Origin: a virus
Taxonomy: Duplodnaviria; Heunggongvirae; Uroviricota; Caudoviricetes
IMG/VR virus record: IMGVR_UViG_2565956717_000009
Coordinates: 1 to 37,482 of that record
Direction: 5' to 3' (one strand)
Length of the DNA: 37,482 bases
The notes beneath the pieces were generated by a model, which was not told where the DNA came from, made no database searches, and saw only the letters and a list, made by a program, of their open reading frames with translations. Within the stretch, counting starts at the first letter, position 1. Every line of letters begins with the position of its first letter. The translations under genes and the position numbers were made by a program. Below are positions 1-34,605 of this stretch, piece by piece.

Positions 1-2946
1 TTAGTGCTTCCCTTCTATTAAGTCTAACCTAGCTTTTATTCTTTCTATTTCTCTGCGCTGCCATGCCGCCTCGATATAGAATAAGAGATCAGGTCTGACC
101 CCCCATCTAGATCCTGCTGGCGTTATTTCAACGCGCTCAATGATGTCTTCCATTACCATCACTGGATTATCATCCTCATCAACAATGATGCTCCCGTCAT
201 TATCAGTCAGCGGCATTTCCCTTTGGCCAGTAATGACGTCATCATATACTGCGGGATAATCGTCATAGCAAAGAAAGGCATAGCGGCATGTTGTGCTTTC
301 TTCTTCCATGAGTCCGTGAGAAATAAGAACATCACGAAGTTGCTGCGCGATTACACCATGATGTATCCTCGCCCCTTCTTCCCCCTTTATAGCGACAGCG
401 TTCAGCCATTTATAAGCGATATACCTGACGTCACCCCAGGCATCCAGCAATGCTTCGTCAGGAGAGACCGGCTCTGTCTTTAATGTTCCGTCACTGGTAA
501 CCACAGGATTGGAGCCAAGATAAACTGTCGAGAACCTGTTTCCCGGACCACCAAGAGCATTTACATTATCAAGATAAGGTTTAACATCTCCGTTCTCAAA
601 AAGATGTTCGAGTGCGTTATATACCGCGCGACGTGGAGTACTGCTTCCGGAACCATGCAACGTTATCATTGCACCATCTGCTGAAGACGTTGTTTCACCG
701 CCGCTAACGATTAATCTCTGAGCGGTAACATCATCAGACGGTACTTTCTTCGCAATAATGGCGTAATTACCCTCAAGTTTGACTTCCGCGCGAACTTGTC
801 CTGATGTACCTGCATGGACAGTCAGTGACTGGACGGCAACATCATCTGTGAAATCAACGGGTACAGGAACCGTCCTCACGCCTGACGTCGACATAAAAGT
901 AGGAAGCGTTCTGTTAGGAGTGGCTCCGTAGACAAAATCCCTTGAAACAAATTCTTCCTGTTTAATTTTCACCCTGAAACAATACAAATCAGCCGGGTGA
1001 CCATCGTGAACATAAGGATATTTTCTGTTGTTATCCCCTATGCTCCATGGGTTTAGAAAGTCTTCCCCACCGAAAATGTAGTACAGCCAGTTGTCTTTGA
1101 TACAAACTGAACCAACACCAACCGCAGAGTTAACTATTCCGCCCTGATAAATCTGATCAGTAACATTAACCCACTCTACATTATCCAGACTCCACTCATT
1201 GACGTTAACTCTGGTCATAAATGTTCTTGGATAATTTCCTGCATAACGGTTATCAGGTTCTCCTCCTTCCCACTCACCAAATGCGCGCTCACTGCCAAAA
1301 ATAATCAGCTCATCGCCAACTTTGGCAAAAGGAAAGTTTGAGTGATGAACATTATTTGGGAAGCGAAGAGAATTCCATGATGTACCTAAATCAGAGCTTC
1401 TGTGCAATGAACTACCGGGTTGAGTACTTAATGTCCCCCTGGTCGTCAGATACAGAATGCCATCATAATATTTTACACATGGCTCAGATGCATTCGCCTC
1501 ATATTCTGCAGGTATGCGTCTGCGAACAAAGCTACCAGGAGAACCGAAAGCATCAGAGAAATAGAGTATCCCAAGCTCGCGTGGACCAATATCACCATTA
1601 TGGTAGCCAACAGCAAAACTGTTATCGCTAATCGTCGCAAAACTGTGAATCTCAGTAACAGGAGTGCTTCCGTCAACAAAAGAAGGAATAGTTCCAAGAC
1701 TGGTTTTTCTCCATGGTGAAGAGTGAAATGATGTACCAAAACTCCAGTATCTACCCTCGTTATTCTGATCCACATCCTGGGTATTTTGCGTCGTAACTGT
1801 AAAAGTATTTTTATCAATAACAGTAGTCACCGTCATATTCCCGGTAACACCTGTAACACCAGAGTTTGAGAAGTTGACAAAATCACCAGCAAATAATCCG
1901 TGATCAGTAATGCGAATATAAGCGACTTGCTGATTTGCTGCTTTCGTTATACCACCATAAACGCGAAGGCTGCGACTCATTGGGCGATCCCACAACTCTG
2001 CAACCTGCAGTTTATTTCCGCTCACGGTCCGCGTCTCAATTACAGCAAAAAGGCGATTTCTGACAACCCCCATACACATGCAGTGATAGTTAACTGTGGG
2101 ATAGTTTTCATGTAAATCTGTAAGCCATTCCGGCGTTGTCCAGGTCTTCCCGTCATCTCCTGAGCGAACCCATGCAACATGGAGGTTATTTACACCATGG
2201 CGGTCTCCAGCCATAAAAGGCGCATAGATGACATTGTCATATACAAACGTTTTATCCTGCGTCCAGGCGTTGTACCACGGTGTATCTGTAATTTTAAATA
2301 ACTCTCCCTGGATAAAATCTTCAGAAGCATAAAAAAGAGGCTGACCCGGTATTCTCTCAAATAAAAAACGAGCATTTTTAAATCGACTGACATCTGGAAG
2401 AGTTGATACTTTAAAAGTAAGCCCTCGCCCATCTATCTTTTCACCACCTGTTGCAACAGAAAGTAATTCTGATAGAGCTGATGTATCATCATGAACACCA
2501 TCACCAATAGCCCCCCAACCTCTTACATCATAACTGTCTCTCCATCTTGCTATCTGAAGTTTTGGGTATTTATTCGCTCCATCTGGGTCTTCTAATTGCT
2601 GCCGTAACTGATCAGGATCATACTTCAGCACATTAGGAAAATAGAACTGCTGTGTACCATACGCATCATAAACAGCCATAGAATGGCCTTGCACGGTTAC
2701 GAATTTGGCAATCTGTCCGTTATATACCGGATATCCAGCAGCGTTAATCATTATTGGTTGCGAAACAGGAATGTGAGAACCGTCTTCGTTCTCTACATAA
2801 ACCTGAATCTGGTTTTCAGGATTTACCGGGTCAGTGTCAATTTTACCGATATAAATTTTGCCATTGGCTACGGCTTTAAAAGAACGCGCCATAGTGAAGA
2901 GTTGCGAAGGCATACTCACTACAACATTGGCTGTAATGTCTGTCAT
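1..2946 (-). CDS. Tailspike: P22 gp9-like head-binding N-domain + sialidase-fold (endosialidase-like) receptor domain + C-terminal intramolecular chaperone (peptidase S74-like)
   Basis: N-terminus [11 protein letters not shown]...[11 protein letters not shown]...LKYDPDQ matches recalled P22 gp9 head-binding domain; two Asp-box motifs ([16 protein letters not shown]); C-terminal ...[16 protein letters not shown]... resembles endosialidase/tail-fibre chaperone domain; 981 aa ORF. Confidence 0.88.
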
Positions 2947-3013
2947 TTAATTTGCTCCAGATACAAGGAATCGCCGCAGCATTGCCACAGTGATGCATTA
3001 TTAATCAAACAAA

Positions 3014-3028
3014 GAGACCGCTGTGGTC
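3014..3028. promoter_or_regulatory. Palindrome AGACC-GCTGT-GGTCT in tailspike/mnt divergent intergenic region; candidate operator
   Basis: Perfect 5-bp inverted arms with 5-nt spacer in the 146-bp divergent region; architecture loosely resembles recalled P22 Omnt. Binding protein not established. Confidence 0.25.
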
Positions 3029-3092
3029 TTATTGAGGATGCAACCAGCAGATAATAAGATGCCGATCCACTCACAAAAGCGAGGCATCAAGA

Positions 3093-3344
3093 ATGGGAAG
3101 AGATGACCCGCAATTTAATCTGCGGCTACCTTACGAATTAAAGGAAAAACTAAAACAGCGAGCCAAATCCAATGGCCGCTCTCTTAATTCAGAATTAGTT
3201 CAGATAGTGACTGATGCTGTATCAAAGCCATCCAAAATTTCAGGCTATCGAGACGATGCGGAACGCATCGCTGATGAGCAGTCAGAGCTTGTTAAGAAGA
3301 TGGTGTTTGATACGCTGAAGGATTTGTACAAAAAACCCACCTGA
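3093..3344 (+). CDS. mnt: Mnt-like ribbon-helix-helix repressor
   Basis: 83 aa; MGRDDPQFNLRLPYELKEKLKQRAKSNGRSLNSELVQIV...AERIADEQSELVKKMVFDTLKDLYKK closely matches recalled P22 Mnt; GAGG RBS 8 nt upstream. Confidence 0.8.
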   Translation: MGRDDPQFNLRLPYELKEKLKQRAKSNGRSLNSELVQIVTDAVSKPSKISGYRDDAERIADEQSELVKKMVFDTLKDLYKKPT

Positions 3345-3360
3345 AGGTGGGTTAATTTTT
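3331..3360 (+). terminator. Hairpin terminator at mnt 3' end (cccacc-tgaa-ggtggg + T-rich tail)
   Basis: 6-bp GC-rich stem at 3336-3341/3346-3351 flanked by A-run upstream and ttaattttt downstream; mnt stop codon lies in the loop. Confidence 0.55.
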
Positions 3361-3443
3361 GCATTTACCTGGGCCATATTGACTACTTATAAAATGAGAT
3401 CAATATTTAATCGCCCAATAACGGGTGTATGTTGAGGTATATC

Positions 3444-3623
3444 ATGGCGAAAAAACCAGGTGAAAACACAGGAAAAAACGGCGGAATATACCAAGAAGTT
3501 GGCCCACGCGGCGGTAAGAAAGACAATTTTGCAACCGTCAAGGACAACGAAAGGCTTCCACCAACAACAAAGCCAGGTCATGGCTGGGTATTGGATAAGC
3601 GAACTCCAGACAGCAAAAAGTAA
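3444..3623 (+). CDS. Small Gly/Lys-rich protein, YjzC-like (recollection)
   Basis: 59 aa from ATG 3444 with GAGGT RBS 5 nt upstream; KPGE..G.Y.EVG pattern; possible -35 TTGACT at about 3389. Confidence 0.5.
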   Translation: MAKKPGENTGKNGGIYQEVGPRGGKKDNFATVKDNERLPPTTKPGHGWVLDKRTPDSKK

Positions 3624-3628
3624 TAATC

Positions 3629-3651
3629 AAGCCGGGTCACTCCGGCTTTTT
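3629..3651. terminator. Bidirectional hairpin terminator between convergent genes
   Basis: aagccgg-gtcact-ccggctt followed by ttttt; sits between the 3' ends of 3444..3623 (+) and 3637..4002 (-). Confidence 0.55.
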
Positions 3652-4002
3652 GATATGTCGCTCGCAGAACTCAACAAGCCTGCTCATTAAGTAGCAGTAA
3701 GTCTCGTTGGCTCTTCCTGGTTCAACATCAACACCTACCCTTGAGCAGATATCGAATGCCATGTGAGCGCACTCATGGGCAATAGTAGATAGTTTGCCAT
3801 TGAACACGCCTATCACATGCAAAACACCATTCTCGCTACTCATTGTATGAGACGCTCCGTTGGCGTCCGAGTCATGCACGTCAACGCCAAGTTTTTGATG
3901 CAGGCGTTGCCATTCTGGAAAGTCTCTACAAAACACAATTGTACCGCTCTCAAAGAGCGGAACGAGCATCTTTGGTACTTTTCCAATGTTAACTTTTTTC
4001 AT
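3637..4002 (-). CDS. Small HExxH-motif protein (putative zinc metallopeptidase-like; ImmA/IrrE-like is a guess)
   Basis: 121 aa; HECAH at residues 76-80; AGGA upstream of ATG; A+T-rich coding sequence; no transmembrane segment evident. Confidence 0.5.
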   Translation of the reverse strand: MKKVNIGKVPKMLVPLFESGTIVFCRDFPEWQRLHQKLGVDVHDSDANGASHTMSSENGVLHVIGVFNGKLSTIAHECAHMAFDICSRVGVDVEPGRANETYCYLMSRLVEFCERHIKKPE

Positions 4003-4032
4003 GGTATCCTGCGTAAAACTAAGGAGGTTGGT

Positions 4033-4455
4033 GTGTTTGGTATATTAAAGAAAAGCAAGATAAAAAAATTAAGGGCAGAACTCGCCGAAACACAAAAACT
4101 GGCTTCACATTTTTACAAAATGAAATACGACGCTGAAGAGCGTGCATTCGTTGAGTTATGCGATTTATCTATTCGTATGGGAGTAGAGCCAGATGTAGCG
4201 GCAAAAACTCAACAAGGCATTGATATACTTGCAGATGTTGTTTTAAACAGGCAATATGCGTTTTATCTAAACGAGAAGGCCATTCAGATTTACTCGCAAA
4301 TCTTCCTCCTAGAAAAAAGAAGAGGAACTCACGATCGAGAAGAGTGGTTAAATGAAGTTGTTAAAAAATCTGGCTGGGAAGTTGTTTCATCAGAACTACC
4401 TCTTATTTGTGCTGATTTAATCGAAGAGGCAAAAGAGCGCCTATCCGATGGCTAG
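4033..4455 (+). CDS. Hypothetical alpha-helical protein, divergent from the HExxH gene
   Basis: GTG start at 4033 preceded by AGGAGG (4022-4027) at 5-nt spacing; in frame with ORF-track 3817..4455 but the long form has no RBS and overlaps the minus gene; 140 aa. Confidence 0.5.
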   Translation: MFGILKKSKIKKLRAELAETQKLASHFYKMKYDAEERAFVELCDLSIRMGVEPDVAAKTQQGIDILADVVLNRQYAFYLNEKAIQIYSQIFLLEKRRGTHDREEWLNEVVKKSGWEVVSSELPLICADLIEEAKERLSDG

Positions 4456-4458
4456 ACG

Positions 4459-4474
4459 AATCCATCCGTGGATT
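4459..4474. other. Hairpin (aatcca-tccg-tggatt) between convergent genes; no T-run
   Basis: 6-bp inverted repeat between the end of 4033..4455 and the gp16-like stop at 4480. Confidence 0.3.
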
Positions 4475-4479
4475 ACTAA

Positions 4480-6636
4480 TTACTCCTGTGCCATTCCGCT
4501 TAGCGATGCCACAATTCCAGCTCTTGCTAAACGCTGGAACTCTTCGTTTCCTAGTGCCTCGCGTATTGCCTTTACGGCGGCCTTATTTGCCATAAATCTG
4601 CGTTCCGCCGCCGCTAATGCACCATCACTTGCCCCAACCTTAACTGCCTTTGTTGCCTCTTGAACAGCCTTTTCAATAGCGTAACGACCACTGCGGGATG
4701 CAGCTAACTTTTCTATCGTCCCTTTAGCTATAGATCCAGAAACAGCCCCTACAACACCGCCAACAATCCCTCCACCAGTAGTACCAACAATAGCCCCTGA
4801 TGTTGAATTGCCTATTGCATTGAGAACTGTCATGACAGCTTTTGGCAGTCCTTGCTCAAGAGAGTTAATTGCCGGTATAGAGCGCCCCGTATGCTCTACA
4901 TATCGCAGTGGTCTGGTTGCTGCTCTGGCAAGGTCGCTGTATGCCCTAGCAATCTTACCCATTTCTGGCGAGTGCCTACTAATGGCAGTAATGTTCTGCG
5001 GCGTAAGGATCGACGCTATATGGAATACGCCAGCAGACTCTGATTTACCGCCACGCACCCCTTGCGATACCGCATCTTGTAATATTGATGCAATTGCAGG
5101 AGATCGCTCAGACTCTGGCAGCGCGCCAATAATCTGATGAAACTTTCCTGTCCCACTTTTTGATGAATTTTGCAAGGCTTTAATACCATCAGTGACTAAC
5201 TGATCAGTTGCAAGGTTTCTAAACGCTGCTTCAGCCTGTTCTTGTGCTGTAAATCTTGCTTTTGACAGATCATTAGCTTTTTGCCAGTCATCAAGAAAAC
5301 CGCCATTTTGAGCCATTATGCGCATATCTTCCGTTGCTGCATCACGAAGCTCCGCCATGCGCCTTGCCGTATTTGCCTCACCAGACCTTATATACTTCTG
5401 CTCAGCGTCAGCAAGTTTACTTCGCCATGCCTTCATGGCATCAAACGTGATTCCTTTTTTACCAGTTTTAGCATAAGCAGATGCAAATTGTTTCATCTCA
5501 GGAGTTAGCGGCATGCCAGCCAAAATATCACCCTGAATTGTAGCGTTCAGGTTTGACATTCTGGCCTTTGCGTCAGGCATCGTGGAGCGGACGCTATCCC
5601 ATGCTGCCTTTTCTGAGTTCTTCATTTTATCAATACTTGCTAAAACCCTTTGTTTTATGGCTGCACTTTTTTCTGATGCAGATCCAGCCTCAGCACCAAG
5701 TTCATCAAGTGCTGAGTGGAATTTCGACTGTATTTCACTAAAAGCCCTAGTATGTGCATCCTGAACAATTCCTGGTTCGGATGCCAATATCCCTTCGGCT
5801 TGTGCAATTCCACGACTTCCAGATCGCATTCCTGGTGTTAATGCGTTTATATCAATTCCAGCAGACTCAGCTGCTTTTGCTACATCTTCGGACACATTAG
5901 CGGCCTGACTGGCAATTGACTGACGCCCAGCACCTGACTTTGCCATCCTGGAAACATCATTAGCAGAATTCAGTGCTGCACCACCAAGAGCCTGTGAAAC
6001 CTTTGGCGCAATAACGCGCCCGACACCTGAAAGAACGCCTTGAGCACCAATATTGATACCACCGTTAATGGCAGCATTTTGTGCAAAATCACCCTCCTGA
6101 TTTGCAGCATCAGCAAGAGAACCGGCAATCATGTTTCCTGCGGAACCGATGTCTCCTGCGAGCTTTGCTGGCGCTCCAGCAGCTTTTGCCGCTGTGCCAA
6201 TTGGCAGGAGATACCCACCAATTGTTTCACCGGCTTGTGCGTAAGAGTCTGTCGGTCGATCGACTGGACGATAGACATCATCCAAAACCTTGGGGCCACC
6301 AAGCCCCTGGCTGATTGCATTAATCAGACTTGCGCCACCCTGCAATACGTCAAATGGTATGTTTACCAGACCACGACCAGCCTGTTCTGCAATTTGCCCT
6401 GCACTTTGACCACCAGTGAGCCAATCGCCAGCTTGTTGCATCAATGATGGTTCTTCTTTCTGCTGCTGAGGCGGATGGTATGCTGCATAAAACTGATCTC
6501 TTGCTTCAGCCCATTTGTCACCAGCCTTAGGGGCAACAACCTCATCAAAATATTGCGCTTGAGCCTGTGCTTTCTGTTCTTCAGTTAACGCCTGATACTG
6601 TGGAGAGGCGATAACATCTTTCCATGCTTTAGCCAT
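4480..6636 (-). CDS. Ejection (DNA transfer) protein, P22 gp16-like
   Basis: 718 aa, Ala/Gly/Gln-rich; position and order 7-20-16 immediately upstream of the immI region as in P22. Confidence 0.7.
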
Positions 6637-7985
6637 TAATCACCCCATAAAGACGAGAAACCGGACTTATTGCTGTCGCTTCCTGATTTTCGCTCACTAA
6701 CATATGTGTCATAACCTGATGAACTATATCCCATTGATTCAGCCTCCCTTGCTGCAACCTTTTGAAATACAGAATATTGCGATCGGATTTCAGATAACTG
6801 TTTTCTGACGACCTCTTCAGGCTGTGTTATATCGAGTTTCGCGATAAGGTTTTCCAGTTTTTGTCCTTCAGCATTGGAGAGGCTACCCATACCTCGCATA
6901 GTCTGCACGTTCTGGACAAACGCACCCGACTTTAATTCTTCTATCGCATTACGGTTTGCAAGCCCTTCAGCACTTGTGAAGCCATCTATATTTCTTCCTT
7001 CGAAGCGACCGATACCTTCAAGCTCCTTCTTACCAAGCAAAGAATCTATTTTCTCTATCCCTCGCTCACCAGTAATCAACGCATTGTTGTAATTATTGTT
7101 GCCATCAAGCCATCTCTTAGCCTGAGACATTCTGGCTGACGTTGCAGCTTTACCGGTTAGCGGATCAATTCCCGTCGCTGCTATCTGTGAGTTAAGAGAC
7201 AAAACATCCATATCCTGAAGTTGTCCTGCTCTTTCAAGGGCCGCCTGTGACTGCTTAAACACATACTTGTCGTGATTCAGTCTTGCCATTTGAGCCTTAT
7301 AGGAAAGATCCTGCCCCCTAATAGCCCTCGCATTCGTCATGTCATTATTGCGAATGGTTTCGTTAATTCTTTGCTGCTCCTGCTGGCGACCAACCATCTT
7401 GTCCTGAACAGCAAACGCCTTTTCTGGTCCAAGCGCACCGAGAGACATAGTAGTCAGCATGTGTGATAGCTGCTCTGGATTCTGGATACCTGTCTGAATC
7501 ATCCAGTCAGCATTAGCACCAACGCGATTTAACCTGTCCTTGTTGTCAGTAATGAATTTACTGTAGGCTTCCGGTCCCTGAGAAAGAGCGACGTTAGCCC
7601 TCATGGCTAAATCGCCCATATCGTTGCGTTGCTGATCATTAAGACCTGAAAACGCCTGTTGTGCCTGTGCAACAAACGCTGGATTTTCCTGGGCAAACTT
7701 AAATAGTCCCGATGGATCACCAGAAGCCCATGCATCAGCATGAACCTTATTGAACGCACTAATCGCTTTCTGTTGCTGTTCCTGCTTATAAATATCAGCA
7801 ACTCCAGCCAGACCACGTAACGCGGTCAGACCAACGTTATTTGCACCTGAGCGAGCCAGTTCATTGTTTTCGCGGATCAGACCAAGCGTTGCGTTAATGT
7901 CGCTTGCCTTTGGCGCATTCTCATTTTGCGCACCGATGCCAGCAAGAAACCCACCAGAATTAATACCCTGTTGCCACGTAGCCAT
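6636..7985 (-). CDS. Ejection protein, P22 gp20-like
   Basis: 449 aa; ATGA overlap with downstream gene; conserved order. Confidence 0.7.
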
Positions 7986-7995
7986 TGATTACCCC

Positions 7996-8688
7996 TTAAA
8001 ACAACGAGCCAAGCAGACCAAGACCAGCACCGATACCAGCACCCCACGGAGTTGATAGCTCGAGAGCACTGGCTATGCCACCACCCAAAAGTGCACCGGA
8101 TGCAGCACCACTAACCCCCTGCTGCAATGCTGACGGTCGGTTGGCGTTTGCCGCAGCCAGCGCCGCGCTTTGCTGTGAAATCTGACTCATGTTGTTGGCA
8201 TATGTCTGCCCGGCGTTTGCCTGTCCCTGAAGAGCGCCAAGACCGATATTTGCCAGGTTGTTGTAATTGTTCATTTGTCCAGATAGCCATTGCTGACCAA
8301 GCGTTGGTGCGATTGTTGCTAACTGATTACTGGTTGCGGTGGAACCCAATCCACCTGTTGCTTCCGCTGCCGCCAGACTCTGATAGCGAGCCTGACCAGC
8401 AAGATCTTTGTACTGCTGAGAGTTGTAATACTGGTTAAGTGCCTGACCTTGCCCCTCCAGAGACGATAAGTTCTCGAGGCTGCCGACATACTTCTCAGCC
8501 AGAGGAGTAAACGGTTTCAGGTTGTTCATGATGGTGTTGAACTGCTGATTTTGCAGGTCTGCGGCATACTTCTGAGCTTCTGCTGCATACTTTGCGCTTT
8601 TATCAGAACTGCCACCTTTCCCGCCTTTTTCAGGGCAATAAGGTTCCTCGCCGCGCAGTTTTCTGCCCAGCTTAAATGCATATAACAT
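7996..8688 (-). CDS. Ejection protein, P22 gp7-like
   Basis: 230 aa (recalled P22 gp7 is about 229 aa); Gln/Ala-rich; conserved position. Confidence 0.7.
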   Translation of the reverse strand: MLYAFKLGRKLRGEEPYCPEKGGKGGSSDKSAKYAAEAQKYAADLQNQQFNTIMNNLKPFTPLAEKYVGSLENLSSLEGQGQALNQYYNSQQYKDLAGQARYQSLAAAEATGGLGSTATSNQLATIAPTLGQQWLSGQMNNYNNLANIGLGALQGQANAGQTYANNMSQISQQSAALAAANANRPSALQQGVSGAASGALLGGGIASALELSTPWGAGIGAGLGLLGSLF

Positions 8689-8690
8689 GG

Positions 8691-9146
8691 CTATCTCCCG
8701 TGCTTCAGGAAGTCGATTAGTTCTTCGCGTGTGGCGCTGTAAAACGTCACGTCATCCACGCCTTTGAAGTATTTCTTGATGGTTCCTACACGCTTAAGGC
8801 CAATCATTGCGCAGTACATCTGCCCGTGGCGGAATTTGCGTGCAGCGAACGATGTGACGCACTGAACGGTGGTGTTAGTCAGAATGTATCGCCAGAACGC
8901 CAGCCCGATTTCCTTGCTGAAGCCGCGAATCTCTGGCAGGTACATGGCGTGGCAATCAAAGGTCAGCGGCTGAATCTCCTGATAGTAAACAATTCCGCCG
9001 AACTGCCCGTGCACGTTCACCTCAAAGTAACGGCATTCAGGTTTGTAGTCGTATCCATCACCGTTGTTGCTCCCGGCGATAATGTCAGGGTGATTTCCTA
9101 CGGCTTCTATCAGGTCGATGTTTCGCGTTGGTTTGAATGTAATCAT
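8691..9146 (-). CDS. P22 gp14-like protein (by position)
   Basis: 151 aa between tail needle and gp7 homologues; start overlaps the gp26 stop. Confidence 0.55.
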   Translation of the reverse strand: MITFKPTRNIDLIEAVGNHPDIIAGSNNGDGYDYKPECRYFEVNVHGQFGGIVYYQEIQPLTFDCHAMYLPEIRGFSKEIGLAFWRYILTNTTVQCVTSFAARKFRHGQMYCAMIGLKRVGTIKKYFKGVDDVTFYSATREELIDFLKHGR

Positions 9147-9847
9147 CAGTCAATCAGCCCATGTAATCTAAGTGCCGTTTCAAGCGCCAGAATACGCTGC
9201 CGCGCCTGCTGCAAACCTGTAGCGAGGGCTGCGACTTCGGATTGTGTGTACGTAGTGCCGACTGTGTATGACTGGTTAGCGTTGAATGAGCCAAGAAGAG
9301 GTGTACCTGTGGCTGCAGTCCATCCGGTATTTCTTGCTCCAACAACCTGAATTCCATCAACTGAATATGATGTTTTTACATCCAGCGGTGACTCAAGAGA
9401 CTGCAATTCGGTTACGGTTTTCGATACGTAATCACTCTTAATGCCAGAGACATCGTTTTCTACCTCATCCAGTCTTTGGTCAACAGTGACCAGATGCGCC
9501 TGAATATCGATAACCTCATCCAGCAAGTAATCAACATCGCTACGCAGTACGACTATCTTCCCTTCGGCAGTTGTTAACCTGACCTCAAGTAGATTTATCG
9601 CTTTTGTGTTTGCGGTGATTCTTGCGTCGTGATCAGCCAGTTCGACATCCTGTTCATCGTTTTTTACCTGGGCATCGTAAGCGCCCTGACCAGCCTGATT
9701 TGCCTTCCCGGCAATTGCGCCGACATCAGCCCCCTGATTAATGACATACAGCAGGTAAGACTGGCTGAATATATTGCGTGGAAGGATTGATGTATCGAGT
9801 CGTGTAGCCTGGATGATTACCGGCACATTGAGATTCGAATCAGCCAT
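9146..9847 (-). CDS. Tail needle protein, P22 gp26-like
   Basis: [25 protein letters not shown]... and C-terminus ...[45 protein letters not shown] match recalled gp26; start at internal ATG 9847 with GGAGG 7 nt upstream. Confidence 0.85.
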
Positions 9848-10385
9848 TAACATGCCTCCACGATTTACCAGACTGGATATTGTGAATCACCGTCTGACTG
9901 ACACAGTATTTTTTAGCAAGCTCTCTTTGATTAACTCCCTTTGATTTCTTTATTTCTATTACTTGCTCATATGATAGCTTTGAAATTGGATTATTTTCTC
10001 CTTTTAAAGCCGGAAACTTCACCCTGCCTTGAGATGAGCAATGCTTCATATTCTCCTTTTGAGTACACCACTCTAAATTAGAAGCATTATTATTTTTTCG
10101 GTTGTTATCTATGTGATTTATGAACGGCTTGCCTTCTGGATTGGGGACGAAAGCAAGAGCGACAAGCCTATGCACAAGCCATTTTACTTTAACTCCATCA
10201 ACACTAAGTGGCAAATATAGATAACCTTTATTATTCTCGTGTTGTTTTAGCCACCGCCCCTTTCTGAGTTGCGTGCTGCCATGCGCAGCTTTAACAACAC
10301 GTGAGTGAGAATATACTCGCCCATCCTCTGTTACGGCATATAAACCTTCATATCCAGGAATATCTTTTGCGTTTTCACTCAACAT
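9840..10385 (-). CDS. HNH homing endonuclease (NUMOD4-like N-motif + HNH + C-terminal HTH)
   Basis: [18 protein letters not shown] (NUMOD4-like), [12 protein letters not shown]...[24 protein letters not shown] (HNH), C-terminal [22 protein letters not shown]; strong AAGGAG RBS; A+T-rich. Confidence 0.85.
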
Positions 10386-10406: not shown

Positions 10407-11825
10407 TTATGTTACACGAATAGAAAGGCCTGATAATGTAACAGGACCTTTTGCAATAACTCTGAATTTAAATCCAATGAGGCGTCTAACTCGACCAACT
10501 TTTCGCCATAAAACGCGATTGTCATATACAAATGGTTTTTGTAATACGACCATTTGCTCACGACCGTAACTAATTCCATCTGTAGTGGCTGATATAAATA
10601 TTTTATCTATTCTATCACACACGCCGCCCGATGTTTCTAATTCAAGGTCATTTATTAAAGCGTTATCTGCCTTTATTAAAGGAGAATATAAAATATGTTC
10701 CTGCTGCTTGTCGTACTGGCTGCTGATATCGAACTGCAATTTCCCGGTCACCGATTCCAGCTTATCGCCGCACGTTATCTGATTGCCTTCGTAAATGAAG
10801 TCGATAGCGCGGTACACATCGTCATACAGGCCTGTTTTCAGCACACACCATTGCGGACCATTGGCGCTTGAAGATGCGTCGTACACGAGAACATGGCGCG
10901 GAAGGTGGATAATCAGCAACTCATGAGCATCAAATCGCAGCGATTCCATCACACCATCAGCCAGTTCATCAGCAGTGTAGGAGCGGAGGATTTTCTCAAT
11001 GCTCGCGCTGGCGATTGGTGACACCTGACCGGAACCGATGATGTACACAGACGGCGCACCTGTTGCCGGATTGCTGATGAACGCATACGAATCAGCAAAC
11101 GGCGTTTTGCAGTAAGTCCCGGCAATGCCTTTCTGCACCATCAGCGATGGCTGTGCGACATACAAAGCAGCACCAACTGTGGTTGCACCAGTCAGGGAGA
11201 AATATTCAATCGTCGATGAGCCAAAGCAGACGATGAAGTCTCGCCATGTTCCGATGCCGATGATGCCGTCAGGCTGTGATTCTGCCCGATATTGTGCGCT
11301 GTAGCGGTCAGGATGCGATTCGTCTTCAAGATCAGTGATAAACCATGAATCAGTACCGTCTTTTGACCACGCATAACGCCCACGTAAGCGAGTAATGTCA
11401 CGAACCGAACCTAATTCATACTGCGTAAATCCGCTGTCTGCAGGCCAGTTTGAGACGGTTTTAACCGTGCCATCATAGCGATACTCGAAAAGTTGACCAT
11501 TAACGCCTACCGCCTGTGATGTCCGACCATGCGCCATTGATACGCGACCACTTCCGGCAACATCACCGACTTCACTTTCTCCTTTGTACAGCTTGCCACC
11601 ACACACGCGATAAACAGCATTCTGCGCCATGTTGTACTCGACGCCTCGAGATACACCGTTCACATCAGAACGTTTTGCAATGCCCGGGAATGAGCGAAGA
11701 TATCCGCTGCTGTTAAGGATTTCTTTGGGTGTAGCCAACATATTTACTGGCAGATAGTCGATATAGTCGGCGTTTCGAAAGTCTTTGCCGACACCTTTCA
11801 TAAGCGGAAGTTGCTGAATCGGCAT
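10407..11825 (-). CDS. Tail accessory/hub protein, P22 gp10-like
   Basis: 472 aa, same length as recalled P22 gp10; conserved position. Confidence 0.75.
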   Translation of the reverse strand: MPIQQLPLMKGVGKDFRNADYIDYLPVNMLATPKEILNSSGYLRSFPGIAKRSDVNGVSRGVEYNMAQNAVYRVCGGKLYKGESEVGDVAGSGRVSMAHGRTSQAVGVNGQLFEYRYDGTVKTVSNWPADSGFTQYELGSVRDITRLRGRYAWSKDGTDSWFITDLEDESHPDRYSAQYRAESQPDGIIGIGTWRDFIVCFGSSTIEYFSLTGATTVGAALYVAQPSLMVQKGIAGTYCKTPFADSYAFISNPATGAPSVYIIGSGQVSPIASASIEKILRSYTADELADGVMESLRFDAHELLIIHLPRHVLVYDASSSANGPQWCVLKTGLYDDVYRAIDFIYEGNQITCGDKLESVTGKLQFDISSQYDKQQEHILYSPLIKADNALINDLELETSGGVCDRIDKIFISATTDGISYGREQMVVLQKPFVYDNRVLWRKVGRVRRLIGFKFRVIAKGPVTLSGLSIRVT

Positions 11826-24911: not shown

Positions 24912-25198
24912 CGAAAATTCTTCTCTTTAATTCCAGCGGCTCTGATAGCTTTCATTACTGCAATTACCGTTTTGTCACGCCCATCCTCATAACCCATCGC
25001 ATAAGCACCTTCTTCACCATCTTTCCAAAAGTCGTCATTCGATTCGGGCCAGTCGATATCCAGTTCAATAGCTGCTCGCGATGCCTGCCATGCCTCCCAT
25101 GCAATCTCGACCTTGATGTGCATAATCTTCATCACGTCACTTGAAACGTGATATTTGTTTTTAAACCATTCTTCAAACTGCTTTCTTGATTCGTCCAT
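24908..25198 (-). CDS. Hypothetical nin-region protein
   Basis: 96 aa, 4-nt overlap with NinB start; acidic/Trp-rich; family not recognised. Confidence 0.45.
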   Translation of the reverse strand: MDESRKQFEEWFKNKYHVSSDVMKIMHIKVEIAWEAWQASRAAIELDIDWPESNDDFWKDGEEGAYAMGYEDGRDKTVIAVMKAIRAAGIKEKNFR

Positions 25199-25215
25199 CG
25201 ATACTTACCCTCAGT

Positions 25216-25422
25216 TCAACTCACAAAACGCCACGCCATTTTTGCTACAGCGACAGGCGCAACACCGATAATCACCCACAGGAGAATGCTACCGAAAAGC
25301 ACACCCACCAGGTCTTTACCTTCGCCTACCAACCGGACAAAACAGCCAGCAACCACAATGAACGTCGCCACCATCCACAGAGCACCGAGAAGCCTCAATG
25401 CAGAGAAAATCAACTCAACCAC
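25216..25422 (-). CDS. Small membrane protein (two predicted TM helices), GTG start
   Basis: 68 aa, hydrophobic throughout; sits directly after the terminator hairpin. Confidence 0.4.
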   Translation of the reverse strand: MVELIFSALRLLGALWMVATFIVVAGCFVRLVGEGKDLVGVLFGSILLWVIIGVAPVAVAKMAWRFVS

Positions 25423-25440
25423 GATTTACTCTCCCCCAAA

Positions 25441-25468
25441 TAAAAAGGCCTGCGATTACCAGCAGGCC
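25441..25468 (-). terminator. tR2-like rho-independent terminator in the nin region
   Basis: Minus strand GGCCTGC-TGGTAATC-GCAGGCC followed by TTTTTAT. Confidence 0.45.
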
Positions 25469-25494
25469 TGTTACAAGCTCAGTGATGTAGATGG

Positions 25495-25764
25495 TCATTG
25501 CTTCATCTCCCTTTCCATTTCATCAATGTCAACGTCATCAGGAAGATGGGAGCAATACGCCTCTATACCATGATGATTTATCTCATACCCTTTGAACGTT
25601 ACCATCTGGCGCGTAATCTCAACTTCGTTCAGGAATCCGTCATCGCATAACTGCCTGGCTATTTTCGATTTGGTCTGGATTATTGGTAGTGCCTGTTCTT
25701 TCAAAGCGCATGATATTTGTGCATCCCATGCCTTTTCGAGAATGGCTAATTGTTTTTTATTCAT
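25495..25764 (-). CDS. Hypothetical protein downstream of helicase
   Basis: 89 aa, start overlaps helicase stop; not recognised. Confidence 0.45.
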
Positions 25765-27137
25765 ACGTCAGCCCCTTGTGCATATCGTCTGCCACGCGCA
25801 GCAGGTGCATTTGATGCTGTGCAAATCTGTCTGGCTTCATCCTGGTCACATGCAACAAAGTGTCCGTTGCAGAACCGCTGGTAAACCGTACCAAGTGAGC
25901 CAAAACGGTTTTTCGTCACAATGATTTCAGCAAATGGCGCGGCGCTACTGTTCTCGTCATATACCGCTTCCCGATAGAGCATGATGATTGAGTCTGCGTC
26001 CTGCTCAATGCTTCCTGAATCACGCAAATCTGCGTTTGTCGGGCGTTTGTTTGGTCGCTTCTCAACATCGCGTGAAAGCTGACTCAGGGAGATAACAGGC
26101 GTTTTCAGGTCTTTCGCCATCGCCTTCAGGCTTCCGGAGATGTGAGCAATTGCGAGGTCGTTGCGATCTGCTTTCGGCTTCTCAATCAGGCCAAGATAAT
26201 CCGCCATGATGAGTGACAGGTTTGGATTTTCCTGTTTGTGCCGTTCTGCGATTGAGCGTATTTCTTCGACCGATAACCGCGAGGCATCGACTACCCATAC
26301 ATCCAAATCTGCAAGCTGACTCATGCCGTTAGCAACGCGCGCCCAGCCTTCGTCATCCATCGATGCAGGATTTCGCAGCACGCTAACCGACATCCTCCCG
26401 GCGTTGGCAATGCTTCGCTCTGCAATCTGCAATGCGCTCATTTCCATCGAGAAAATCAATACTCCGCGCCGGACGTCAGAACCAGGAATAACGCGGCTTG
26501 CAACGCCTTCGGCAATCTTCAGCGCCAGTTCGGTTTTCCCCATACCAGGACGAGCGGCGATAATCACCAGGTCTTCCGCGTTCATCCCTCCGGTGATGGC
26601 GTCAAGTTCTTCGATTCCGGTCTTCAGGGTATCGGACTCTTCTCCGTTCCTCAGACGCCTGTCAAGCGTGTCAGTGTAGTCAGTGATGATTTCCCCTAAC
26701 CGTACAGGTTTAACCTCGTCACGGGGCTTTCTGATGGCTGAAAGACGCTTTACGAGCTCGTCCATCGCCTGACTCGATGTATCGATGGTTCCGCTCTGAA
26801 TTGGTTCACGCATTTCATCCATGATTTCCAGCACCAGACGGCGGTGATAGTTATCCGCGACCATTCCGGCATATCCCTTCAGGTTTGCGGCACTCGGGCA
26901 GTTTTTGCTGGTCATCAGGATTGACGTGAAATGCTCCTCTCCGCACGCCTCGGCAACCATCAGCGCGTCGATTAGGTTTCTGTTTCGCGCCTGCTTGCGG
27001 ATAACCTCGAAGGCTTTCCGGTAGAGCGGAATTGAAAACGCTTCCGGCTCCAGCGTTGCCAGAACGTCGCTGGCGGTTGGTGTTAATCCACCAATCAGCA
27101 GGCCACCGATAACGCTCGCTTCGATATCCTGTTTCAT
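25761..27137 (-). CDS. Replicative DNA helicase (DnaB-like, P22 gp12-type)
   Basis: 458 aa; Walker [18 protein letters not shown]; DnaB-like N-terminus; ATGA overlap with O-like gene. Confidence 0.9.
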
Positions 27138-28081
27138 GCAATCCCCCTGTCTGCAAACTTCCCTTCCCGTACTCCCGTTAACGAGTCTTCCCTCAGCAGG
27201 TAATCAAAATCTGCCGTCCAGCCCGTGTCGTTGTCTCCGAAGTAAAACGGCTTGGCCTGATGCACAAACGCCCTGACATACGCTCTGAAACCGTCCACGT
27301 TTGGCGTTTTCAGTTGCGGGATGATTTTCTTCAGGCGGCGTTTGCGTTTCTCGTTGACCGCAACAGCGTGTGGCAGTCTGTCACCGACTTCGGTGTTGTA
27401 GGCGTTCAGGAAGGATTCGTAGTCGATTCGTTCTGCCTTGCGACGTTCAGGTTTAACCTGCCCATCGCCTCCCCCATTGGGGGGTAGGGGGGTATTATTT
27501 ATATTCTTGTTAATACCTTCTTGTTCATGATGTGCGGTTGTTTGTGCGGCATCATGTGCGCTTTCATGTGCGGCATGTACGCTGAAAGCCGCGCCATTAC
27601 TGGCTTCATCATGTGCGGCATCATGTGCGGTTGTTTGTGCGGCATCATGTGCGGGTGAATTGTCCATTTTTTGAGCGTATTCATGGTAATTTGTGATGGT
27701 GATCACACGACCTTTTTGCTTCTCTCCATCAATGGTGATCATCCCCTCTTTCACAAAAACCTGAAGCATCCGCTCAACCTGATCACGGCTTGCCGGCTTG
27801 CCATGCCTGTCGCATAACTGAAGACCTAAATCAGCTGCTGTCACAACCAGTTGACCGGGTTGCAGATGCCATTCATGACCTTTGAAATTCGCTTTGTATG
27901 GCTTTCTGGCGGCATTCAGGAGAAGGTTTTCCCACAGGGTGCGAAGATAAACATCTTTCGCCCATGACTGTTTCAGAATGCTCCGGTACAACGGAATGTA
28001 ACCAGTTTTCTGGTTCTCCATCCTGTTGCTCCTGCGCTCGTGTGCGGCGCTGAAATCGTAGATTTTTGCTGTATTGCTCAT
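27134..28081 (-). CDS. Replication initiator, lambda O / P22 gp18-like, with internal origin
   Basis: [13 protein letters not shown]... resembles lambda O N-terminus (MTNTAKILNF...); central low-complexity HDAA repeats encoded by DNA iterons. Confidence 0.8.
27520..27660. repeat. Tandem direct repeats (candidate ori iterons) inside the O-like gene, next to an A+T-rich tract
   Basis: Repeated atcatgtgcggc / ttgtttgtgcggc units; adjacent A+T-rich stretch 27489-27517 (tattatttatattcttgttaatacc), as in the lambda ori layout. Confidence 0.5.
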
Positions 28082-28083
28082 AA

Positions 28084-28356
28084 CTACCTGCCTTGACGAA
28101 AGACCTTAAGAACATCGTTAAACTGACTTACGGATATGTCTTCTTTGAGCAGCTTTTCCAGAAATGCGTTTGGAATGAACGTATATCCCTCCTCTTTTGG
28201 TAGAGACGGGAGCAACGCCCTCGCCTCAGCCTTCAGAAGCTCAGTTCTGGCAACTTTCACAAAAGAGATTTGAGTTCTTTCATCAATGGAACGAAGGAAG
28301 CGCAAACGCTTAACTTCTTTGTGTGTATCAGGTGGATTAAAGCCTTTGTTTCGCAT
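28084..28356 (-). CDS. Hypothetical protein inserted between cII/oop and the O-like gene
   Basis: 90 aa from ATG 28356 with GAGGT RBS at 7-nt spacing; ends 2 nt before the O-like start. Confidence 0.45.
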   Translation of the reverse strand: MRNKGFNPPDTHKEVKRLRFLRSIDERTQISFVKVARTELLKAEARALLPSLPKEEGYTFIPNAFLEKLLKEDISVSQFNDVLKVFRQGR

Positions 28357-28357
28357 A

Positions 28358-28437
28358 TAATTACCTCGCTGGATGTTGTTAAAATTCCATTTGTATTTGA
28401 TCAGAACGCTCGGTCTTGCACACCGGGCGTTTTTTAT
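28358..28437 (+). ncRNA. oop: OOP-like antisense RNA overlapping the cII 3' end
   Basis: Plus strand gatcagaacgctcggtcttgcacaccgggcgttttttattggtgag matches recalled lambda oop 3' end/terminator; 5' end not mapped. Confidence 0.5.
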
Positions 28438-28678
28438 TGGTGAGTCCATCAAGCGCATACTTAAAAGCCCTGCTAATCGGACTGATGTCTGATGCCATTC
28501 CGAAAGCACACAAGACCGAAGCAATAAATCTCCAGTCCGTTCTGCTTATCTTCGATTCATGACAGCCAATCATCTTTGCCAGACCGCGCTTGGTAAGCGT
28601 TGACAGGTTGATGAGTAAATCAGTTTCAGCGCGATCAATTTCTCGCTGTGTTGGCTTGCTGTAACTTGCTTGTGTCAT
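28379..28678 (-). CDS. cII: CII-like transcriptional activator
   Basis: 99 aa; C-terminus ...TNKKRPVCKTERSDQIQMEF matches recalled lambda CII tail; N-terminal region diverges. Confidence 0.75.
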   Translation of the reverse strand: MTQASYSKPTQREIDRAETDLLINLSTLTKRGLAKMIGCHESKISRTDWRFIASVLCAFGMASDISPISRAFKYALDGLTNKKRPVCKTERSDQIQMEF

Positions 28679-28762
28679 TTGTTAATTTTCCAATAGTGAA
28701 TAGTTAGTTGAAAGGTATGCGTGGAAACGCATATGTCCTTAGTTGGTCAGATATCTTGGGAC

Positions 28763-28777
28763 TCGCTTTGTCAGCGA
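28763..28777 (-). promoter_or_regulatory. nutR boxB-like hairpin (P22 type)
   Basis: Minus strand UCGCUGACAAAGCGA, same GACAA loop as nutL boxB; between cro and cII. Confidence 0.4.
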
Positions 28778-28815
28778 CGTAGGACGAATGTCCATTGTGA
28801 AAATAGCGGTGTTAC

Positions 28816-29025
<210 letters not shown>

Positions 29026-29042
29026 TTAGTACATGCAACCAT

Positions 29043-29106
29043 TATCACCGCTAGAGGTAAAATAGTCAACACGCACGGTGTTAGATATTTATCCCTTGCG
29101 GTGATA
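29043..29106. promoter_or_regulatory. Operators OR1-OR2-OR3 with divergent PR and PRM (lambda-type)
   Basis: OR1 29043-29059 tatcaccgctagaggta, OR2 29067-29083 caacacgcacggtgtta, OR3 29090-29106 tatcccttgcggtgata; PR -35 TTGACT and -10 GATAAT on the minus strand. Confidence 0.8.
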
Positions 29107-29113
29107 GATTTAA

Positions 29114-29830
<717 letters not shown>

Positions 29831-29837
29831 CACGTAA

Positions 29838-30275
29838 ATGATTAAAGAACGTATTTCTTATATCATTCCGATTGCGATGGATGAAGGCAACCCAGTAACT
29901 CCAGTTCTTATCTATGAAATGGATAAAGACTCCCATGAAGTGGATCTATCATTTGGCGCTTTTTTTATCGGCCTTAAGGCTACAAAAAAATATTCCATAG
30001 GCATTGAGGTTTTCAATGCTCAAGAAATACCGATACCAATTGACACAAAACTGTACTCCAACCATAAGTTTTTTACGGTAGCAGAAGCCAACGATGGAGA
30101 AACCATCGTATCAACTTCTATGAGAATTAACTTCCCAAGGGTGAAAATTATCAAGCCTGGGATATTCGAAGTTAGAGCATCACTGGTTAATCCTGATAAA
30201 GGCGAAGTAATTGATGTAAAAAGTTCGTTTTTTGACGTGAAGATAACAGGATCGGTTCGCGATGAGTTTAGATAA
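29838..30275 (+). CDS. Hypothetical protein, first gene of the cI-downstream (rex-position) cassette
   Basis: 145 aa, starts 7 nt after the cI stop; visibly A+T-rich; no recognised motif. Confidence 0.6.
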   Translation: MIKERISYIIPIAMDEGNPVTPVLIYEMDKDSHEVDLSFGAFFIGLKATKKYSIGIEVFNAQEIPIPIDTKLYSNHKFFTVAEANDGETIVSTSMRINFPRVKIIKPGIFEVRASLVNPDKGEVIDVKSSFFDVKITGSVRDEFR

Positions 30276-30633
30276 CAAGGTTGCTCAGCTTCGTCCAAAT
30301 CAAAACATATCTCGCCCAATTGGACACTATTCCACTGATGATGCATACTCACGGCATGCTGGAGGAAACGGCGGAGGTAACATGCTTGAGGCTAGAGTTG
30401 CAAAGCTAGAGTCTGATGTTGAATACATCAAGCGCGATCTCGCTGAAGTAAAGTCAGATATAAAATCTGTAGATTCTCGTCTGTCAGGTATTGAGACAAG
30501 CATTAGCTCAGCAAAAATCACCATCAAGGCATCTGCGGTCGTTGTCAGTTTCGTGTTCGCATTTTGCGCCTACATTTTTGGAAGTTATGTTTCCAAAATC
30601 CTTGATGCCTTAAACGGACTCGTTCTTAAGTAA
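30262..30633 (+). CDS. XhlA-like tail-anchored membrane protein (coiled coil + C-terminal TM), second gene of the rex-position cassette
   Basis: 123 aa; Gly-rich N-terminus, heptad-like LEARVAKLESDVEYIKRDLAEVKSDIKSVDSRL, C-terminal hydrophobic ASAVVVSFVFAFCAYIFGSYV; 14-nt overlap with upstream gene. Confidence 0.6.
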   Translation: MSLDNKVAQLRPNQNISRPIGHYSTDDAYSRHAGGNGGGNMLEARVAKLESDVEYIKRDLAEVKSDIKSVDSRLSGIETSISSAKITIKASAVVVSFVFAFCAYIFGSYVSKILDALNGLVLK

Positions 30634-30638
30634 CACAC

Positions 30639-30666
30639 AACCCGGCCTCAGCGCCGGGTTTTCTTT
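30639..30666 (+). terminator. t_imm-like rho-independent terminator ending the cI operon
   Basis: aacccggc-ctcagc-gccgggtt (8-bp stem) followed by ttctttg, 6 nt after the stop at 30633. Confidence 0.65.
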
Positions 30667-30823
30667 GCCTCACGATCCCCTTCACCCAATAACACATAAC
30701 CAATTGTATTTATTTGAAAATTAATAGATACAACTCACTAAACATCGCAATTCAGATCTCTCGATCACCTCCCAAGCCACACACCCCTGCAAAAAAATAA
30801 ATCTATATAAAAAACATACAGAT

Positions 30824-30886
30824 AACCATCTGCGGTGATAAATTATCTCTGGCGGTGTTGACATAAATACCACTGGCGGTGATACT
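30824..30886 (+). promoter_or_regulatory. Operators OL3-OL2-OL1 with PL (lambda-type)
   Basis: aaccatctgcggtgata (30824-30840), tatctctggcggtgttg (30844-30860), taccactggcggtgata (30868-30884); -35 TTGACA 30858-30863, -10 GATACT 30881-30886. Confidence 0.8.
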
Positions 30887-30954
30887 AAACACATCAGCAG
30901 GACGCACTACTCACCAGGGCGGTGAATATACAACGATTCGAATATGAATCTACG

Positions 30955-30969
30955 GCGCTGACAAAGCGC
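30955..30969 (+). promoter_or_regulatory. nutL boxB (P22 type)
   Basis: GCGCTGACAAAGCGC matches recalled P22 boxB; lies in the PL leader upstream of N. Confidence 0.5.
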
Positions 30970-31134
30970 AATAACCAAAGTGAACTTTGGGGTGTGGTGA
31001 AGGGTTCATGGACGGGAATATGTCGCACGTAAAGCGGCGAGGCCTGCGGGACTATTGCCGAATTGAAGTAGGCCGAAACAGGTCGAAATGGGTCTCCCAC
31101 CTACCACACCACCAAAGTTCATCAGGAGGTCTAT

Positions 31135-31518
31135 ATGACACGCAGAACTCAGTTCAAAGGCAATTCACGTTCTCGTCGTCGTGAGCGTTTAAAGGCAAAG
31201 GCATTAGCTAACGGCGTACTGGCCCGCGAAGAAGCAATAAGTTCAGAAGTATTACACCGCCCTACTCTAAGCAGAGCGCAGATTCAGGCTAAAGGTACTC
31301 ACGAAACGCCTGAGCGCATAGAAGACGCTAAGCCAATTAAGTTCATGGCACAGGACGTGATCTGGCAACAGAAAGAATACAGACGCAATCTGGAGAGAGC
31401 GGCCATTGTGTACGCGAATGAGTTTGGACATAAGCAACCAGAAACTGGTGTATGTCTTCCAAATGTAGCTCTTTACGCAGCAGGCTACCGGAAATCAAAA
31501 CAACTGACGGCGAGGTAA
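31135..31518 (+). CDS. N: Antiterminator N (P22 gp24-like)
   Basis: 127 aa; Arg-rich N-terminal motif GNSRSRRRERLKAKA; C-terminus ...LPNVALYAAGYRKSKQLTAR resembles recalled P22 gp24; GGAGG RBS. Confidence 0.75.
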   Translation: MTRRTQFKGNSRSRRRERLKAKALANGVLAREEAISSEVLHRPTLSRAQIQAKGTHETPERIEDAKPIKFMAQDVIWQQKEYRRNLERAAIVYANEFGHKQPETGVCLPNVALYAAGYRKSKQLTAR

Positions 31519-31520
31519 TT

Positions 31521-31892
31521 ATGGGTCAGGAAGAAAAATATGAGCTTAAAAAGCTCATTGGAGAAGACGCCATAGAAGAAATTGCAGCATTAACAACAGC
31601 TATAAAGAATATTAGGTATGCGCTAAATACGCTTATCTCCTCATGCGACAAAAATAGCAGGGAATTTTTGATACTTGGCGCAGCTCTAGGAATAGTTGAT
31701 GCGGCAACGCTTCACCTAATTACTCATGACGATATTCTTATTGAGCCGTATGAAACATTACTGCTTGTCAGGAAAAAAATGGCTGATGCCGCAGCAAATG
31801 GAGACCTTCAACTTTACATCGACTTAAGGAAAGTATTAAGGCGAATGGTCAGAACTGAAGGAGATATCCCCCCTGACAAAATAAGGGGGTGA
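31521..31892 (+). CDS. Hypothetical protein directly after N (sieB/ral position)
   Basis: 123 aa from ATG 31521, 2 nt after the N stop; A+T-rich; no recognised motif. Confidence 0.55.
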   Translation: MGQEEKYELKKLIGEDAIEEIAALTTAIKNIRYALNTLISSCDKNSREFLILGAALGIVDAATLHLITHDDILIEPYETLLLVRKKMADAAANGDLQLYIDLRKVLRRMVRTEGDIPPDKIRG

Positions 31893-31984
31893 GAGGATTT
31901 TACTATTTTTCTCGCTGTAGGGGTACACGAGAACCACCGAGCCTGATGTGGTTAAAAGACAGGCATACTAATAAACACTGCACT

Positions 31985-32012
31985 GTGTATTCATTCCAAC
32001 GAGTGAATACAC
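31985..32012 (+). other. Long imperfect inverted repeat (RNA hairpin) in the 228-bp noncoding stretch
   Basis: gtgtattca...tgaatacac, extendable to about 13 bp with one mismatch. Confidence 0.4.
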
Positions 32013-32073
32013 GGAGCAATGTCGCTCGTAACTAAACAGGAGCCGACTTGTTCTGATTATTGGAAATCTTCTT

Positions 32074-32099
32074 TGCCCTCCAGTGTGAGGGCGATTTTT
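32074..32099 (+). terminator. tL1-like rho-independent terminator
   Basis: gccctc-cagtgt-gagggc followed by gatttttta. Confidence 0.55.
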
Positions 32100-32120
32100 T
32101 ATCTATGAGGATATGAATAG

Positions 32121-32489
32121 ATGTCAAACATCAAAAAATACATCATTGATTACGACTGGAAAGCATCAATAGAAATTGAAATTGACCATGACGTAATGAC
32201 AGAGGAAAAACTTCACCAGATTAATAATTTCTGGTCAGACTCTGAATACCGACTCAATAAACACGGCTCTGTATTAAATGCTGTATTAATCATGCTGGCG
32301 CAACATGCTCTGCTTATAGCAATTTCAAGCGACTTAAATGCATATGGTGTTGTGTGTGAGTTCGACTGGAATGATGGAAATGGTCAGGAAGGATGGCCTC
32401 CAATGGATGGTAGTGAAGGAATAAGAATTACCGATATCGATACATCAGGAATATTTGATTCAGATGATATGACTATCAAAGCCGCCTGA
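32121..32489 (+). CDS. Ea10-like protein (by size and position; recollection)
   Basis: 122 aa between the N-proximal gene and cIII, as for lambda ea10. Confidence 0.45.
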   Translation: MSNIKKYIIDYDWKASIEIEIDHDVMTEEKLHQINNFWSDSEYRLNKHGSVLNAVLIMLAQHALLIAISSDLNAYGVVCEFDWNDGNGQEGWPPMDGSEGIRITDIDTSGIFDSDDMTIKAA

Positions 32490-32564
32490 GCGCGGCTTTA
32501 TCGCATACCAATGATGCTTCACCAGAGGCATTTTCGTTATGCAATCAAACAGAAGGAGTTACCC

Positions 32565-34594: not shown

Positions 34595-34605
34595 CGGTAT
34601 CGCCT

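Follow-up and report, generated by a model that had tools for sequence, protein, structure and literature searches.

We analysed a stretch of 37,482 nucleotides (nt) of viral DNA (Caudoviricetes; IMG/VR record IMGVR_UViG_2565956717_000009, positions 1 to 37,482), hereafter called the window in its full length, and we conclude with high confidence that its first 2946 nt encode an endosialidase tailspike from a temperate phage of the P22-like group (Lederbergvirus) that resembles CUS-3. According to the list of open reading frames (ORFs) and its translation, the gene consists of one complete ORF (1-2946, minus strand), which runs from an ATG at 2946 to a stop codon at 1-3 and specifies a precursor of 981 amino acids (aa) and 109.3 kDa. 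A preliminary description of this DNA had placed the gene correctly and left its strand unmentioned; its suggestion of a CUS-3-like tailspike is likewise borne out, as the siaK1 gene of Enterobacteria phage CUS-3 (CP000711, ABQ88383.1) matches it from end to end with 99.0% nucleotide identity. CUS-3 SiaK1 also has 981 aa in an equal domain order, and it is separated from the window protein by 11 aa substitutions and zero indels. For CUS-3, GenBank lists an "endosialidase tailspike protein" whose endo-alpha-sialidase activity is backed by a direct assay, with reference to PMID 16689790 (Stummeyer et al. 2006). Similarly, the tail fibre gene of vB_EcoP-720R6 shows 99.5% nucleotide identity across the full length, and 181 out of 5,426 complete E. 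coli genomes have a full-length copy of the tailspike, with identities of up to 99.8%. The feature is already known and characterised, and the window adds one more near-identical allele.

The domain architecture can be read directly from the translation. A Pfam profile search returned all six expected domains, in order and every one above its curated cutoff; their coordinates, like those of all further features of the gene, refer to the minus strand. Residues 1-113 (2608-2946) match Head_binding (PF09008), the P22-type virion attachment domain, over positions 1-113 of the 113 in the profile (expectation value E=1.6e-66), in agreement with the P22 gp9 particle-binding domain of roughly 110 residues that had been described, and HK620 gp9 is 90% identical in this part. 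A linker without a Pfam domain (aa 114-145, 2512-2607) connects the head-binding domain to the endosialidase N-terminal extension (End_N_terminal, PF12218; aa 146-212, 2311-2511; E=8.8e-37), which is followed by the catalytic, six-bladed sialidase beta-propeller (End_beta_propel, PF12217; aa 213-662, 961-2310; positions 1-367 of 367, E=2.4e-232). Nested in the propeller is a beta-barrel (End_beta_barrel, PF12195; aa 324-406, 1729-1977; positions 1-83 of 83, E=1.2e-46). The stalk, a triple beta-helix or tailspike domain (End_tail_spike, PF12219; aa 663-817, 496-960), is matched full-length at E=7.6e-78, and the protein ends in an intramolecular chaperone or autoprotease of 18.7 kDa (aa 818-981, 4-495), delimited by Pfam and by alignment with the endoNF chaperone structure 3gw6, in which Peptidase_S74 (PF13884) covers aa 818-878 at 41.5 bits as compared to a cutoff of 22. 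The two canonical Asp-boxes noted earlier, SGDDGKTW at aa 262-269 (2140-2163) and SSDLGTSW at aa 517-524 (1375-1398), both lie inside the beta-propeller profile match. All three parts named in the preliminary description, the C-terminal chaperone included, are real and their matches exceed chance by a wide margin.

A search of the Protein Data Bank (PDB) placed this architecture beside solved structures. The catalytic fragment of the K1F endosialidase endoNF (1v0e, 3gvl and mutants) aligns to aa 145-817 with E=0, the sole indel being a 7-residue insertion, FVDGSTP, at aa 423-429 of the window protein; the phi92 endosialidase 4hiz matches at 1e-271. In fact, propeller, beta-barrel, stalk and chaperone align end to end with K1F endoNF (1v0e, 3gvl, 3gw6) over aa 145-979, and the two proteins differ in their virion adaptor, which is of T7 gp17 type in K1F and of P22 type here, and in the middle of the chaperone domain, which is more diverged. 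The residues that take part in catalysis or substrate binding in K1F are H350, R549, E581, R596 and R647 (PMC12632334). To find their counterparts, 244 was added to the chain index in the alignment to give the endoNF residue number, a numbering confirmed because E581, R596 and R647 then fall on E, R and R and because the R647A mutant has Ala at that position. In the 1v0e and 3gvl alignments all five residues are conserved, as H250 (codon 2197-2199), R456 (1579-1581), E488 (1483-1485), R503 (1438-1440) and R554 (1285-1287), respectively. By analogy with endoNF, the propeller would cleave alpha-2,8 polysialic acid endolytically. The preliminary description had called this part a sialidase-fold receptor domain and had proposed to locate its catalytic residues and the serine cleavage site of the C-terminus. 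The fold was recognised correctly, as the endoNF match attests, whereas a role in mere receptor binding falls short of a domain that is that of a receptor-destroying endo-N-acetylneuraminidase.

The C-terminal domain had been taken for a self-cleaving chaperone, and the Peptidase_S74 match is joined by that to the endoNF chaperone construct 3gw6, which aligns as far as aa 979 with E values from 8e-95 to 1e-68 in the PDB search. Chaperone domains of endosialidases are known to cleave themselves off through a Ser-Lys dyad (PMC3742443). S818 (493-495), the putative nucleophile, aligns to the 3gw6 position that was mutated to Ala in the crystal construct, and K823 (478-480), its putative dyad partner five residues further on, aligns to a Lys in endoNF, such that the Ser/Lys spacing is as in endoNF. 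Since mature endoNF crystal chains end at a Thr aligned with T817, this residue is the predicted end of the mature protein, and the predicted products are a mature subunit of 90.6 kDa (aa 1-817) and a chaperone of 18.7 kDa (aa 818-981). One could still ask whether the central domain is some non-sialidase propeller or a beta-helix, with a C-terminus devoid of an autoproteolytic dyad. Against this, the endosialidase-specific Pfam profiles match full-length (E=2e-232), whereas the generic BNR_2 profile remains far below its cutoff, and S818 and K823 align to the endoNF dyad. Nothing was found in favour of such a domain; it is ruled out by the Pfam, PDB and 3gw6 alignments, and the chance that it is nevertheless correct is vanishingly small. 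Nothing that was tested runs counter to a CUS-3-type endosialidase tailspike as the explanation.

The genomic surroundings of the gene in its relatives bear on the bacterial host. In the closest chromosomal relatives, SCU-124 and CUVET21-H2, the order of genes is the argW transfer RNA (tRNA) gene, intS, a neuO-like acyltransferase gene and the tailspike gene, a layout of argW, int and neuO in line with what has been published about CUS-3 and neuO (PMC8653822). The acyltransferase gene is annotated with 882 bp in SCU-124 (locus L005, 4966-5847) and with 336 bp in CUVET21-H2 (locus L006, 5120-5455), a difference that would fit phase variation by heptanucleotide repeats, as described for neuO of CUS-3. 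Because the window begins exactly at the tailspike stop codon, neuO and int, which adjoin siaK1 in CUS-3, lie outside it.

The SCU-124 host was examined for a complete kps/neu capsule locus and carries one, kpsMT-neuD-neuB-neuA-neuC ... kpsSCUDEF, beside pheV; among the 5,426 complete E. coli genomes, 329 have the neuE-neuS stretch of this locus. Its annotation in the other carriers listed is that of an alpha-2,8-polysialyltransferase family protein, and some carriers are typed O2:K1. Four of the best 15 tailspike-bearing genomes (SCU-124, A42, Ecol_AZ159 and M21816) are among the 60 listed of the 329 neuE-neuS carriers, which makes at least four such hosts with these genes. Therefore, this overlap and the SCU-124 locus together support a K1 association for the relatives, from which we infer it for the window. 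The window appears to derive from a CUS-3-like prophage, and its source was most probably a K1 strain of E. coli. A kps/neu locus, as looked for in the K1-like E. coli host that the preliminary description had suggested, is present among the hosts of the relatives (SCU-124, and the carriers in the neuE-neuS overlap); the window itself holds no host DNA.

The neuE-neuS region of SCU-124 itself (locus L007, 33200-35700) contains no ORF above 100 aa, is 45 nt longer than and only 97.2% identical to that of all other genomes, and neuD is annotated as frameshifted. These defects probably stem from indel errors made in assembling homopolymers of AT-rich DNA, although a CUS-3 lysogen whose capsule locus has decayed would be an alternative; they were not counted as evidence of capsule loss.

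A related question is whether the preferred substrate might be another sialic-acid polymer, either that of K92, with alternating alpha-2,8 and alpha-2,9 linkages, or heavily O-acetylated K1, in which case the gene would mark a non-K1 host. K92 strains also use neu genes, such as those carried by the hosts of the relatives, and the window is without host information of its own. However, the enzyme is 99% identical to that of the K1-specific phage CUS-3, and the hosts of its closest relatives carry the region annotated as alpha-2,8-polysialyltransferase family, some carriers of which are O2:K1. We regard a substrate other than the K1 polymer as highly improbable and retain the K1 capsule as the target.

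Three observations weigh against the overall assignment to an active CUS-3-type tailspike from a K1 strain. No neuO, int or host DNA is present within the window, such that the K1 host is taken solely from relatives; among complete E. coli genomes, none covers at least 80% of the early genes at 25,001-37,482; and three residues of the tailspike, introduced by I66M, S291C and L538F, are absent from all other sequences compared. The latter comparison involved five sequences in total, position 66 being compared with CUS-3, 720R6 and HK620, and positions 291 and 538 with CUS-3, 720R6, vB_EcoP_ZX5 and endoNF. None of the three changes falls at a known catalytic position, although S291C and L538F lie in the propeller.

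These two substitutions, at positions otherwise identical in CUS-3, 720R6, ZX5 and endoNF, would fit a cryptic prophage whose tailspike allele is decaying or has lost its enzymatic activity, leaving the fold unchanged and the protein binding-only or non-functional. Moreover, with int and neuO outside the window the integrity of the prophage cannot be judged. On the other hand, the ORF is intact, every known catalytic residue is conserved, as are the two Asp-boxes and the Ser-Lys dyad, just 11 aa differ from the active CUS-3 enzyme, and the neighbouring virion genes examined (4480-10385) are intact as well. A dead allele is therefore very unlikely, and an active endosialidase remains our preferred reading.

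The modular origin of this tailspike is visible at the DNA level. HK620 gp9 shares 90% aa identity with the window protein over aa 1-124 and zero similarity past aa 124; the DNA homology to HK620 gene 9 begins 47 nt upstream of the ATG, continues at 92.8% to nt +354 (aa 118) and then stops. The conserved 47-nt leader (2947-2993, minus strand) marks the left boundary of the module, with blastn breakpoints at sense position 108, corresponding to window position 2993, and its letters, compared directly, also match those of HK620. Homology to CUS-3 DNA likewise starts at -47, where CUS-3 annotates the boundary sequence bsq1. The N-termini of Sf6 gp14 and P22 gp9 also match the head-binding domain (1e-64 to 1e-44 in the PDB search), and the likeness to P22 gp9, Sf6 gp14 and HK620 gp9 comprises the head-binding domain of aa 1-118 together with the 47-nt leader, the nucleotide figure being that for HK620. 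In contrast, the receptor domains of these three proteins are right-handed beta-helix O-antigen endoglycosidases and have no cleaved chaperone.

The opposite arrangement is found in vB_EcoP_ZX5 (MW722083), an epsilon15-like Uetakevirus. Its tail fibre gene is 99.5% identical at the nucleotide level from nt +522 to +2914 (aa 175-971; window 34-2424 against MW722083 1501-3893), and the protein shows 96% aa identity over aa 134-980. The ZX5 protein differs in having its own 192-aa N-terminus, suited to an epsilon15-like virion, and in its last ~10 residues. Taken together, the breakpoints in HK620, CUS-3 and ZX5 therefore reveal one endosialidase-plus-chaperone cassette on different virion adaptors in different genera. 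The 99.5% identity to ZX5, combined with another N-terminal adaptor, points to a very recent exchange of the cassette between two genera of temperate podoviruses, with mappable breakpoints. A literature search on ZX5 and its endosialidase returned no relevant paper. The modular principle itself was published already in 2006: as reviewed in PMC5380687 (citing Stummeyer et al. 2006), the N-terminus of the CUS-3 protein is common to P22, Sf6 and HK620, and its catalytic part is common to K1F.

The domain architecture, the conserved residues, the near-identity to siaK1 and the K1 capsule loci of the relatives are direct results; cleavage, enzymatic activity and host range of the window's own allele we infer, and the following course of events is proposed. 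By homology to K1F endoNF, the 981-aa precursor would trimerise with the aid of the 164-aa intramolecular chaperone at its C-terminus. After folding of the triple beta-helix stalk, S818, helped by K823, would cut the T817-S818 bond, thereby freeing the chaperone and leaving the mature subunit of 90.6 kDa. The N-terminal 113 residues, by homology to P22 and Sf6, would then plug the trimer into a P22-type tail hub, in which its partners would be the homologues of tail needle gp26, gp10 and gp4 that are encoded downstream in the window. The six-bladed propeller, with H250, R456, E488, R503 and R554, would bind the K1 capsule and cleave its alpha-2,8-polysialic acid endolytically, and this cleavage may allow the virion to reach the outer membrane.

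Upstream of the tailspike, the divergent neighbour is an mnt gene encoding an Arc-family repressor (3093-3344, plus strand), which matches Arc-like families of PHROG at 3e-37 to 3e-19. The tailspike ATG is separated from mnt by 146 nt with neither ant nor arc between them, so that the immI region is reduced to a lone mnt (2947-3344). This spacing of 146 nt is also seen in 720R6, SCU-124 and CUVET21-H2, whereas CUS-3, which shares the P22-like genome backbone, carries ant and two mnt genes next to its tailspike gene where the window has a single mnt. The intervening DNA includes the palindrome AGACCACAGCGGTCT (AGACCGCTGTGGTCT) at 3015-3029 (minus strand), behind which the tailspike strand has a T-rich tail. 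This terminator-like match lies 69-83 nt upstream of the ATG, at the position of the annotated tANT of HK620. It is a candidate tANT-like terminator or possibly an operator; an Mnt operator would fit less well, as both the position and the T-rich tail agree better with tANT of HK620. A promoter scan of 2800-4600 detected no convincing sigma-70 site upstream of the tailspike. S291C and L538F might shift the activity of the enzyme or the substrates it tolerates, for example in favour of O-acetylated polysialic acid made by the linked neuO, and the immI region without ant might place the tailspike under the direct control of Mnt; we consider these ideas speculative and very improbable.

Between mnt and the ejection-protein gene (3429-4455) there are small conserved ORFs, of 64 aa on the plus strand (phrog_3202) and 121 aa on the minus strand (phrog_1365). 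An ORF of 212 aa in the same interval (3817-4455, plus strand) lacks a match in PHROG and overlaps with the 121-aa ORF, and it is therefore unlikely to be a gene in its entirety.

Beyond the tailspike, the window is a P22-like (Lederbergvirus) genome of mosaic composition. The late genes show 96% identity to CUS-3 across 73% of the first 25 kb, the DNA of the late operon also matches HK620 and Sf101, and the early genes form a mosaic in common with Kapi1, HK97 and Stx phages. No phage record covers at least 80% of either half of the window, and scanning its full length for tRNA genes and Rfam families gave no hits. The tailspike region is followed downstream by genes for homologues of the ejection proteins, the tail needle and a head-morphogenesis protein, and then by head-closure and DNA-stabilisation genes, among which are the partners required by a P22-type head-binding domain. 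The virion genes examined at 4480-10385 are intact ORFs with strong family matches. This part of the window also contains an HNH/NUMOD4 endonuclease ORF of 181 aa (9840-10385, minus strand; PHROG HNH families, E=3e-58) that is absent from CUS-3; its neighbours are the tail needle gene (9146-9853) on one side and a gp10-like head-closure gene (10407-11825) on the other. At full length this ORF occurs in only one phage record, HZ41, out of 50,697, and in 16 of the 5,426 complete E. coli genomes, SCU-124 and A42 among them, and it is probably a free-standing homing endonuclease.

As for its wider meaning, the gene is a textbook case of modular tailspike evolution, and endosialidases of the CUS-3/K1F type serve as reagents for polysialic acid and have been considered as anti-K1 agents. 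Within the biology of E. coli and its phages, it marks K1-capsule-specific temperate phages that are linked to neuO-mediated O-acetylation of the capsule.

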